Origin: Pseudomonas phage HHBS18_1
Sequence record: PQ287651.1
DNA: 64,000 nucleotides
Reading direction: 5' to 3' (one strand)
Shown: positions 3,287 to 3,891 of the stretch, piece by piece
How positions within the stretch are numbered: position 1 is the stretch's first letter
Layout: every line of letters begins with the position of its first letter
The notes under the pieces: model-generated
What the model was told of the DNA's origin: nothing
Database searches by the model: none
Seen by the model: only the letters and a program-made list of their open reading frames with translations
Made by a program: the position numbers and the translations under genes

Positions 3287-3652
3287 TTACTTGTTAAACC
3301 AACCGAGGTCAATAGCTCGTTCTAAGGCTCGTAGCAGATTCTCAGCATCTAGAAGATCACGGATCGGCATCCAACTCCCACTATTCCCCGGTAAGCCATC
3401 TGCGATGTACACAGGTACGTCAGTATACTCGCTCTTTTCAAGTCTGCAAGCACAGTCTACACTATCTCCGAAGACAATCTCCCTGACCTCTGCCGCCTCG
3501 TTTCGAATATCGATCTTCACGGTGTTTCCTCCTGTTTTGTTGAAAGTCGTTGTATTCTGGACGGATTCCTCTGCTGTGTCAATAGCCTTGACAAGAAAAT
3601 AATCCGTGGTAAAGTGGGTGACCTGCTGGAGAGAAATGTCCACGTCACTCAC
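3287..3652 (-). CDS. hypothetical protein (start uncertain)
   Basis: ORF; non-ATG start whose 5' end overlaps a conserved non-coding element. Confidence 0.35.
   Translation of the reverse strand: MSDVDISLQQVTHFTTDYFLVKAIDTAEESVQNTTTFNKTGGNTVKIDIRNEAAEVREIVFGDSVDCACRLEKSEYTDVPVYIADGLPGNSGSWMPIRDLLDAENLLRALERAIDLGWFNK
3588..3615 (+). promoter_or_regulatory. sigma70-like promoter (TTGACA-N16-TAAAGT) upstream of structured element copy 1
   Basis: -35/-10 hexamers inside the leftward ORF. Confidence 0.35.
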
Positions 3653-3891
3653 CGGCCAGCAGTATAGCGTATGAAGAGGAAAGCTGCAAGCGCATCCTGA
3701 GTCGAATCTGAGAACAGGGCAGCGACGACCCGAAAGGGGAAAGCTCAGAGCCTATAAGGAGCCCATGCTCCCCGCTCACCGACTCATCTGCATAATGAGA
3801 GCGAGAGGCAGACCAGAGGCATGTCTTAGGCGGAAAAATCCGTATGGCAAGCCTAGGGACAGGTCTGCCTCCACTACCGATCTATCTGCAT
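3646..3891 (+). ncRNA. conserved structured non-coding element, copy 1 (second copy at 60249-60523)
   Basis: ~65-70% identity to copy 2, with compensatory changes in at least two helices (cccGAAAggg vs cgcGAAAgcg; gctgc..gcagc vs ccac..gtgg); shared motifs cactcaccggcc, ctcatctgcat, atctatctgcat. Confidence 0.5.

Follow-up and report, generated by a model that had tools for sequence, protein, structure and literature searches.

Evidence for a family of structured non-coding RNAs with two pseudoknots and paired variable repeats, present in two copies in a Pakpunavirus genome

The 64,000-nucleotide (nt) stretch of Pseudomonas phage HHBS18_1 DNA analysed here (sequence record PQ287651.1; the whole stretch is called the window below) contains two copies, A and B, of an element that almost certainly represents a genuine family of roughly 270–300-nt structured non-coding RNAs, uncatalogued in the resources searched and present as two ancient paralogues per genome. 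Covariation shows a fold that begins with a 5'-terminal hairpin, whose internal loops are invariant, and continues with a double-pseudoknot core and a long hairpin of three helices (domain 2), on either side of which lies a copy of one short hairpin module, the direct repeats R1 and R2. The reading of its function that we tentatively prefer, though with less than even confidence, is that the conserved scaffold presents two identical base-pairing loops to a common single-stranded nucleic-acid partner outside the element.

By sequence comparison, the window is from a Pseudomonas aeruginosa myovirus of the genus Pakpunavirus, and both regions match JG003, PAK_P2, K5, K8, JG004 and about 120 other genomes at 97–100% identity in blastn. 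A nhmmer profile built from 24 homologues matches copy A at 3623-3891 (E = 1.4e-52) and copy B at 60246-60527 (E = 1.3e-56), and a scan with this profile gave no third copy in the window. In a global alignment of 3623-3891 with 60245-60523, 212 positions are identical, or 82% when counted over the aligned columns and 76% over the length of the longer copy, with a score of 115.5 compared with -4.4 +/- 5.9 for shuffles. An earlier note, made from the sequence without database searches, had already pointed out the resemblance of the two copies, which is real, and all conserved blocks that it quoted were found in them, but its value of 65–70% identity is slightly too low. Its coordinates (3646-3891 and 60249-60523) cover most of each copy and miss the true 5' start, which has to be moved upstream, by about 25 nt for copy A, because the 5' strand of the first helix, P1, lies at 3623-3629 and 60245-60251; at the 3' end, R2 extends the element to about 3898 in copy A and 60525 in copy B.

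More distant homologues with 60–80% identity were found by blastn in myoviruses of P. syringae and P. fluorescens (Otagovirus, Flaumdravirus, Kremar, ventosus, Pyxpy01 and Y1-MI), and pattern scans added further contigs from IMG/VR and metagenomes, including one full element on a contig binned with a 'Thaumarchaeota' metagenome-assembled genome. After near-duplicates were dropped, the non-redundant set comprised 39 elements, which range over Pakpunavirus, Otagovirus, Flaumdravirus and related uncultured phages. Wherever the whole genome or both loci could be read (VCM, KIL1 and phiPsa374), two paralogues per genome were present. In addition, a divergent homologue on the metagenome contig Ga0070746_10168497 (L049, positions 259-393) aligns only with model positions 4-135, which comprise P1 and the pseudoknot core, and is dissimilar beyond them; thus, the 5' domain may occur on its own, without domain 2 and the R repeats.

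The case for a structure rests on comparative evidence, because the folding energies of the single sequences are unexceptional: copy A has a z score of -0.97, which is unremarkable and a point against the interpretation, and copy B a modest one of -2.69. The alignment used for covariation was made with MAFFT from 24 diverse homologues and was not fitted to any structure. From this alignment RNAalifold predicted the helices P1, Pa, P3, P4, P6, P8 and P9, and two-sided changes with pairing kept in at least one sequence were seen in 27 of the 40 predicted pairs. P2 and P2a were placed by eye, and the whole structure was then scored with the pseudoknots included. Pairs changing on both sides then amounted to 32 of 57, and 83.5% of the cells were paired, compared with 69.9% after shuffling (500 shuffles) and 39–54% when the 3' partners were slid by 1–3 columns; the covariation score was 0.402 versus 0.162 for the shuffles, none of which (0/500) was as high, and 0.08–0.17 for the slid partners. 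The paired fraction was 97% for P1, 96.9% for Pa, 90.8% for P2, 98.6% for P2a and 100% for P3, with two-sided changes in most pairs (6 of 7 in P1), and 89.9% for P6, with two-sided changes in 3 of 5 pairs. Since Pa crosses P2, and P2 and P2a cross P3, the core forms a double pseudoknot. Moreover, in a swap test, complementarity fell when the two strands of a helix were drawn from different elements, and many distinct complementary versions of the helices were counted (P1, 21; Pa, 14; P2, 16; P3, 15; P4, 20; P8, 33; P10, 21). These results on an unbiased alignment support the interpretation as a functional structured RNA that the earlier note had put forward. The two compensatory helices that it had named are also real, cccGAAAggg versus cgcGAAAgcg being P4, and gctgc/gcagc versus tccac/gtgga being P2; what it had missed are the two pseudoknots and the covariation in identity between R1 and R2. 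The features of the two copies are as follows (+, plus strand).

3623-3898 (+): structured RNA copy A, from the 5' strand of P1 to the end of R2; A-type, with the RNA ligase gene nearby
3623-3662 (+): P1 hairpin, CTGCTGG at 3623-3629 with CCAGCAG at 3656-3662
3629-3640 and 3646-3655 (+): near-invariant blocks of the P1 internal loop, GAGAGAAATGTC and CACTCACCGG
3667-3749 (+): double-pseudoknot core, supported by covariation
3667-3669 with 3691-3693 (+): Pa
3670-3679 (+): conserved TATGAAGAGG
3683-3687 with 3719-3723 (+): P2
3696-3698 with 3716-3718 (+): P2a
3707-3712 with 3744-3749 (+): P3
3729-3738 (+): P4 hairpin
3738-3743 (+): conserved GGAAAG
3758-3771 (+): P6 hairpin, GGAGC-CCAT-GCTCC
3777-3799 (+): R1 within hairpin P7 (CACCGACTCATCTGCATAATGAG), local fold -6.7 kcal/mol
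3786-3794 (+): shared core ATCTGCATA of R1, in the apical loop and 3' arm
3805-3871 (+): domain 2 with P8, P9 and P10, supported by the pair counts of P8 and P9
3805-3814 with 3862-3871 (+): P8, GAGGCAGACC with GGTCTGCCTC
3817-3820 with 3851-3854 (+): P9
3831-3842 (+): P10, CGGA-AAAA-TCCG
within domain 2 (+): conserved GTCTTAGGC, GTATGGC (3842-3848) and GGGAC
3874-3898 (+): R2 (CTACCGATCTATCTGCATACAAGAG), core at 3884-3892, essentially unstructured (-0.6 kcal/mol)

60245-60525 (+): structured RNA copy B, B-type; 5' leader of a conserved small Zn-ribbon open reading frame (ORF), tRNA cluster downstream
60245-60372 (+): P1 and double-pseudoknot core
60245-60251 with 60279-60285 (+): P1
60291-60293 with 60314-60316 (+): Pa
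60294-60303 (+): TATGAAGAGG
60306-60310 with 60343-60347 (+): P2
60319-60321 with 60340-60342 (+): P2a
60332-60336 with 60368-60372 (+): P3
60353-60362 (+): P4
60381-60396 (+): P6 hairpin
60401-60422 (+): R1 within hairpin P7, core ATCTGCATG at 60411-60419, -9.1 kcal/mol
60433-60499 (+): domain 2
60433-60440 with 60492-60499 (+): P8, GGATAGAG with CTCTATCC
60441-60447 with 60480-60486 (+): P9
60458-60471 (+): P10, CAGA-TTAAAT-TCTG
60471-60477 (+): GTATGGC
60506-60525 (+): R2 (AGCCGAATCTATCTGCATGG), core at 60516-60524

A further feature of the element is the pair of repeats R1 and R2, which are 25–30 nt each and flank domain 2 (P8 to P10). Their 5' halves are alike, with stable repeat-specific differences (CCAAUCACGAUCUCA in R1 versus CCAAUACGAAACUCA in R2), and their 3' cores are the same within an element but different between elements. 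All four repeats in the window carry the core ATCTGCAT, and the cores in other elements include AGCGTCATGAG, AGTGTCATGAG, AGCTTCATGAG, ATCTACGAG, ATCCCCAAG, ATCGGCAGAATG, ATTTAGGATA, GTTTTGGATAG, AACAGCA and AAGTGATGT, giving 28 distinct cores among the 39 elements. The longest string shared by R1 and R2 has a mean length of 9.9 nt within an element (range 7–13), compared with 6.0 nt between elements and 5.6 nt in shuffles. Close relatives show single substitutions mirrored in both cores (for example AGCGTCA, AGTGTCA and AGCTTCA), and the paralogues of one genome have different cores in KIL1, VCM and phiPsa374. The identity of R1 and R2 thus appears, from these comparisons, to be under selection, and ongoing gene conversion appears unlikely because the R1- and R2-specific differences directly beside the core persist.

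The two repeats differ in their predicted local structure. R1 is folded into hairpin P7, which has two tiers and a mean energy of -8.1 kcal/mol, and its core occupies the 7-nt apical loop and the 3' arm, whereas R2 is either open or folded only into a weak hairpin of 4 bp (mean -3.5 kcal/mol); R1 is the more stable of the two in 33 of the 39 elements. In one element (L030), A has changed to G in the R1 arm and the stem is maintained by a G-U pair, which shows a constraint at the RNA level. Furthermore, when the sequences of 16 alleles are lined up by their CUCA motif, only C or U occurs at loop position 2 and only A or G at position 6, while positions 1, 3, 4 and 7 vary freely; the transition-only positions would fit a partner with fixed flanking bases. 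Some variants have additional repeat-like segments. Two Pakpunavirus copy-A variants (L012 and L035) have an insertion of 12–22 nt in the P7 loop which creates a third ATCTGCAT around a palindrome (for example CTCATCTGCATATACATATATGTATATCTGCATGAG), and another element (L016) has an extra R-like mini-hairpin CTCATACGAG after R1. Each element has three occurrences of a string (C)UCACCG(A/G), one in the 3' side of P1 and one each in the 5' halves of R1 and R2 (degenerate in the last); the sites are 3646-3655, 3775-3783 and 3876-3882 in copy A, with equivalent positions in copy B, and read UCACCG, UCACGA and UACGA in the Otagovirus copies.

Both copies are preceded by consensus sigma-70 promoters. 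The TTGACA hexamers at 3588 and 60208 that the earlier note had reported were confirmed, each with a 16-nt spacer to its -10 element, and the predicted +1 of copy A falls at about 3621-3623. In 33 of the 39 elements, a sigma-70-like promoter is found whose -35 hexamer lies 43–45 nt upstream of the GAGAWATGTC block. P1 is taken as the 5'-terminal hairpin because the predicted +1 sits 0–3 nt before it, leaving at most 3 nt unpaired at the 5' end. Putative promoters are also given in the PAK_P4 and KIL1 records at or slightly upstream of the homologous places, with the one in PAK_P4 corresponding to the promoter of copy B. We infer from these promoters that each copy would be transcribed by the host sigma-70 RNA polymerase from a consensus early promoter, and that the two copies would be the first RNA made on the two main rightward transcription units. 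The promoters and the neighbouring genes are as follows (−, minus strand).

2119-3255 (−): RNA ligase gene, with a PHA02142 OB-fold domain and PF09414
3588-3615 (+): sigma-70 promoter of copy A, TTGACA at 3588-3593, 16-nt spacer, extended -10 TG-TAAAGT at 3610-3615
3900-3928 (+): second sigma-70-like promoter, TTGACA, 17-nt spacer, TAGAGT; directly after R2 of copy A, serves the gene at 3960-4157
3960-4157 (+): gp5.9-like gene, the first after copy A; Pfam PF25708 (Phage_T7_Gp5_9, T7 gp5.9 RecBCD inhibitor), E = 1.2e-13
60208-60235 (+): sigma-70 promoter of copy B, TTGACA, 16-nt spacer, TG-TATTAT
60526-60786 (+): A/C-rich, G-poor leader followed by a CxxC...CxxC ORF of 62 amino acids (60598-60786, phrog_10364)
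61258-63941 (+): tRNA cluster of 15 genes, about 0.7 kb downstream of copy B

The surroundings of the two types are conserved as well. A-type elements lie 350–800 nt from a divergently transcribed RNA ligase gene, and this adjacency is constant in Pakpunavirus, Otagovirus-like phages, KIL1 and three metagenomic lineages, in which the ligases are only 46–50% identical. The combination of an OB domain with PF09414 is one which we take to be associated with ligases of the Rnl5 type, presumably nick-sealing in function. In VCM, there is a second RNA ligase gene, with adjoining phosphoesterase genes. After copy A and the A-type element of L017, the next consensus promoter follows within about 10 nt; a promoter directly after R2 is laid out in the same way in L012 and L017, and the downstream genes are therefore independent of read-through from the promoter of the element. 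B-type elements stand in the order of a divergent phrog_5019 gene, the element, a Zn-ribbon ORF of 62–65 amino acids (phrog_10364), then a phrog_3900 gene and the tRNA cluster. The Zn-ribbon ORF follows in nearly all homologous loci and is separated from the element by an A/C-rich, G-poor leader of about 50–100 nt. The tRNA cluster of the window contains genes for Gln, Arg, Lys, Leu, Ile, Asp, Met, Cys, Asn, Pro, Gly, Phe, Glu, His and Thr, and consensus sigma-70 promoters are present amid the tRNA region at 60862, 61598 and 62312. Both copies stand at back-to-back divergent promoters and at the two minima of the cumulative GC skew of the window (about 3.6–4 kb and about 60 kb), and in VCM each copy is at the head of one of two long co-directional gene blocks. 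Two further features of the window were noticed. A group I intron at 11645-11913 (+) (Rfam RF00028, 71.9 bits, E = 2.7e-16) breaks a long ORF (9703-11712), with a possible downstream exon ORF at 11997-12686, and a perfect 6-bp G+C palindrome, GGGCCC-GAAA-GGGCCC at 59276-59291 (both strands), followed on the minus strand by a T-rich tail, resembles a terminator acting in both directions within a leftward gene block.

The earlier note had found no match to a known RNA family, and this was borne out: at the gathering threshold of Rfam 15, the window yields the group I intron and tRNAs only. Even at E < 10, both copies and 14 homologous loci gave only noise (PART1_3, Methylosinus-1, group-II D1D4 at 14 bits, and SCARNA18); the recurrent weak matches to SCARNA18 reach 19–23 bits compared with a threshold of 40 (E = 0.45–5.7) and reflect only UGAAGA...CUGA strings. 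Transfer-messenger RNA, 6S RNA and RNase P RNA were rejected, as ARAGORN found tRNAs only and there were no matches in Rfam. C/D-box guide RNAs have C (RUGAUGA) and D (CUGA) boxes, which form a kink-turn beside a terminal stem and flank guides of 10–12 nt. A reading of UAUGAAGA...CUGA as a C/D box or kink-turn was likewise rejected, since the adjoining helix Pa has the wrong strand order (by eye) and the Rfam scores are below threshold. In the full-text literature searched, no description of the element was found, only unrelated small RNAs (sRNAs) of PAK_P3 and PAK_P4 and generic surveys of phage RNAs. The sRNA1 and sRNA2 of PAK_P3 are late, processed RNAs without a transcription start of their own (PMC4933390, PMC10914365); their boundaries, earlier predicted to enclose 89 and 132 nt, were refined to 85,248-85,458 and 86,307-86,426 (PMC10914365). 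Together with candidates derived from 5' untranslated regions, they are non-coding RNAs of related P. aeruginosa myoviruses, some near the tRNA region, but they are different RNAs, and nhmmer found no homologue of the element in positions 40-88 kb of PAK_P3 (Nankokuvirus). Among the records inspected, the sole annotation touching the element is a 13-nt 'sRNA' of the YS35 record (MF974178; L001 1650-1662 = window 3729-3741), which is only the P4 hairpin CCCGAAAGGGGAA of copy A and appears to be an annotation artefact.

We rate the element as an RNA class new to the catalogues searched, with which put RNAs, T-boxes, ColE1 RNA II and guide RNAs share at most location or logic. Like putL and putR of phage HK022, which are cis-acting antiterminator RNAs that bind polymerase and suppress terminators further on, it is folded, non-coding and present in two copies per phage genome right after early host-polymerase promoters. 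However, put RNAs are about 70 nt long with two stem-loops, whereas the element has about 275 nt, two pseudoknots and a 3' domain bracketed by repeats; the sequences are unrelated, no terminators to override were found, and copy A is bypassed by the second promoter. With the T-box riboswitch (RF00230), it shares a long structured 5' leader with a pseudoknot; in addition, its loop triplet and the following purine resemble the T-box Specifier, and copy B is just upstream of the phage tRNA cluster. A T-box was nevertheless rejected, since there is no RF00230 match even at E < 10, no T-box sequence, no terminator/antiterminator switch and no intrinsic terminator after the element, and the genes downstream encode a gp5.9-like RecBCD inhibitor and the Zn-ribbon protein rather than aminoacyl-tRNA synthetases or amino-acid functions. 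Moreover, the element has two identical loops rather than one, and the cognate tRNA is not consistently phage-encoded. ColE1 RNA II is also highly folded, driven by a strong promoter and has an upstream loop matching a downstream stretch of the same strand, but it has no relation to the element in sequence or structure. A promoter like that of the antisense RNA I was not found, the repeat is a specific 7–13-mer instead of a homopolymer run, and the likeness of the location to an origin is confined to divergent promoters and GC-skew minima. Guide or seed RNAs (sRNA seeds, C/D-box guides and CRISPR RNAs) have in common with it a conserved fold and a short, freely evolving single-stranded segment; in the element, however, this variable segment is duplicated within one RNA, and neither a target nor an effector protein was found.

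In the reading we prefer, the conserved core would be the scaffold and the two R loops the working parts. The R core of 7–13 nt could take nearly any sequence as long as both copies were identical, and a segment that is variable yet identical within the element is what would be expected of a programmable base-pairing segment, that is a seed, guide or specifier. One copy of the core, held in a stable hairpin loop, would be suited to loop-loop contact, and the other would be offered in a weak hairpin or an open tail; host RNA or the anticodon loop of a tRNA are candidate partners. A number of observations weigh against this reading. No consistent complement to R was found inside the element, and only scattered runs of 5–9 nt (G-U allowed) at inconsistent positions within 450 nt downstream, the region of the ribosome-binding site included. 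A conserved sigma-70-like promoter on the opposite strand was not found either, nor a complementary partner in VCM, the single complete relative genome scanned. The stretch 45113-45125 (+) (TCTATCTGCATGG) is identical over 13 nt to R2 of copy B and runs antisense to a DprA-like gene (45091-45798, −), at the 3' end of that gene. It is conserved within Pakpunavirus, including PaP1 and ITTPL, but was rejected as a target because it has no equivalent in the DprA-like gene of VCM and no covariation in relatives; the match is probably due to chance, though it may be a Pakpunavirus-specific target. Extra 11-mers matching R in VCM (79490, 90289 and 81622) were also judged to be chance, as they do not covary in relatives, and the site in the DNA ligase gene is not kept in phiPsa300, whose R is the same, nor does it show covariation in REC or PPSC2. 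Among effector genes (nucleases or modifying enzymes), a consistent link to the element was seen only for the RNA ligase near the A-type. Furthermore, with an external partner each change would have to be made at three sites, R1, R2 and the partner, and such a three-way covariation would evolve less easily than a self-contained rule. The transcription of the element is predicted from the promoters. The PAK_P4 record, whose annotation drew on RNA-seq, has no non-coding RNA over copy B, and none is annotated in the regions of PAK_P4 and KIL1 that were fetched.

One specific form of this scaffold, which we consider quite improbable, is a programmable tRNA-binding RNA, in which the R loop (N-Y-NNN-R) would act as a codon-like specifier for the anticodon loop and the RNA, with the ligase and the tRNA cluster, would shield or splint tRNAs cut by host anticodon nucleases. 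For this phage the loop triplet is UGC; VCM has GUC and AGC, other phages have UAC, UUC, CCC, GGC, AGA and ACA, and no stop triplet occurs in the 16 alleles with an unambiguous register. Phage-encoded cognate tRNAs for these triplets, tried as partners, are not consistently present; loop position 2 is mostly C, and A37 of tRNA cannot pair with C. If the proposal were true, which tRNA is chosen would be driven by an arms race between phage and host.

The identity of R1 and R2 could also be explained without a third site if the partner were the DNA of the element itself, for then the only rule needed would be that R1 equals R2, which matches the failed search for a partner. In ColE1 RNA II, an upstream loop pairs with downstream template DNA; likewise, the R1 loop of the nascent RNA would pair with the template strand of R2, which lies about 105 bp further downstream, folded domain 2 keeping R1 near R2, and the persistent RNA-DNA hybrid anchored in this way would prime rightward replication or mark the locus. 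The divergent promoters and GC-skew minima at both copies, the long co-directional gene blocks headed by the copies of VCM, and a tract of about 70–100 bp with about 69% A+T after the B-type copies are consistent with this, and the origins of T4 and T7 consist of a promoter plus an AT-rich element. However, the GC skew here tracks the direction of transcription equally well, the tract that follows has an RNA strand rich in A and C, which is poor for a stable R-loop, the transition-only variation at two loop positions is not predicted, and the elaborate invariant pseudoknot core is left unexplained, so that we regard this explanation as unlikely. We give a similarly low place to a cis-acting early leader, which would modify the transcribing polymerase, in processive antitermination or against Rho, as HK022 put RNA does, or protect the transcript by stabilisation of the 5' end, with the R modules being secondary, for example boxA-like. 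It is favoured by the start of the element at the +1 of strong early promoters, its place at the head of the two main rightward units, the 5'-terminal hairpin with 3 or fewer unpaired nucleotides, the C/A-rich, G-poor tract resembling a Rho loading site after B-type copies, and the conserved 5' half of R (GAUCUCAA), which by eye is loosely boxA-like. Yet both units have many more sigma-70-like promoters along them and no strong intrinsic terminators were found there, the genes after copy A can do without the leader owing to the promoter right after R2, and the enforced identity of hypervariable R cores is unexplained.

The symmetry of the R hairpins about the base of P8, with shared arms and loop, suggests another possibility, namely cleavage by an endonuclease at equivalent positions of the R1 and R2 loops and crosswise re-ligation by an RNA ligase, likened to HAC1/XBP1 splicing, by which domain 2 would be excised, possibly as a circle, and an intact R hairpin regenerated in each product. 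An RNA ligase gene is always near the A-type copies, and its domain pair can be read as Rnl5-like. Against this, a candidate endonuclease was not identified, B-type copies have no ligase nearby, the synteny might be mere inherited gene order, identical arms would suffice without identity of the loops, and a form resembling the spliced product was seen in no genome; we therefore hold it to be rather improbable. Two identical hairpins per RNA are also the classic layout of an operator, on the model of N protein and boxB or of coat protein and its operator, and the paired sites might be bound by a phage RNA-binding protein such as the Zn-ribbon protein of 62–65 amino acids, whose ORF comes after the B-type element at almost every locus; the constraint at certain loop positions would agree with it. 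But a protein blind to the free loop positions would not enforce R1 = R2 there, the paralogues of KIL1, VCM and phiPsa374 differ in R and would need two co-evolving proteins, and no RNA-binding domain was detected in any neighbouring protein, which makes an operator very unlikely. Finally, it is hardly credible that the element is not a functional RNA at all, but a duplicated coding fragment, a DNA-level repeat or a recombination site. ORFs of 59–64 amino acids do overlap the 3' halves of the copies (3765-3959 and 60390-60569), and the R sites, with short inverted arms around a spacer, look by eye like the core sites of recombinases. However, the two ORFs are in different frames and absent in many homologues; a coding function was rejected because no ORF is conserved in frame and several homologues have no ORF of at least 30 amino acids across the element. 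A DNA rearrangement was rejected too, as no deletion or inversion between R1 and R2 occurs in any blastn hit among the ~120 P. aeruginosa phage genomes, and dozens of compensatory, G-U-tolerant changes back the helices. The earlier note had itself named a coding duplicate or a recombination site as what would overturn its interpretation, and the non-conserved ORFs and the covariation contradict both.

The Pakpunaviruses PAK_P1, JG004, PaP1 and K5 are among the P. aeruginosa phages studied for therapy, yet none of the records inspected annotates, as such, the RNA that two of their early promoters are predicted to make first. With about 275 nt, two pseudoknots, two paralogues and a distribution over at least three genera, this RNA has a complexity like that of many riboswitches and small ribozymes, and it would be a new class for structural and functional work. 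To our knowledge, it is uncommon for two parts of the same RNA to covary in identity, and examples involve template switching, guide-like recognition or recombination-like exchange. Resolving the identity rule of the R repeats would bring to light either a novel kind of recognition guided by RNA, serving phage takeover or the evasion of defences, or a novel means by which origins or transcripts are marked.

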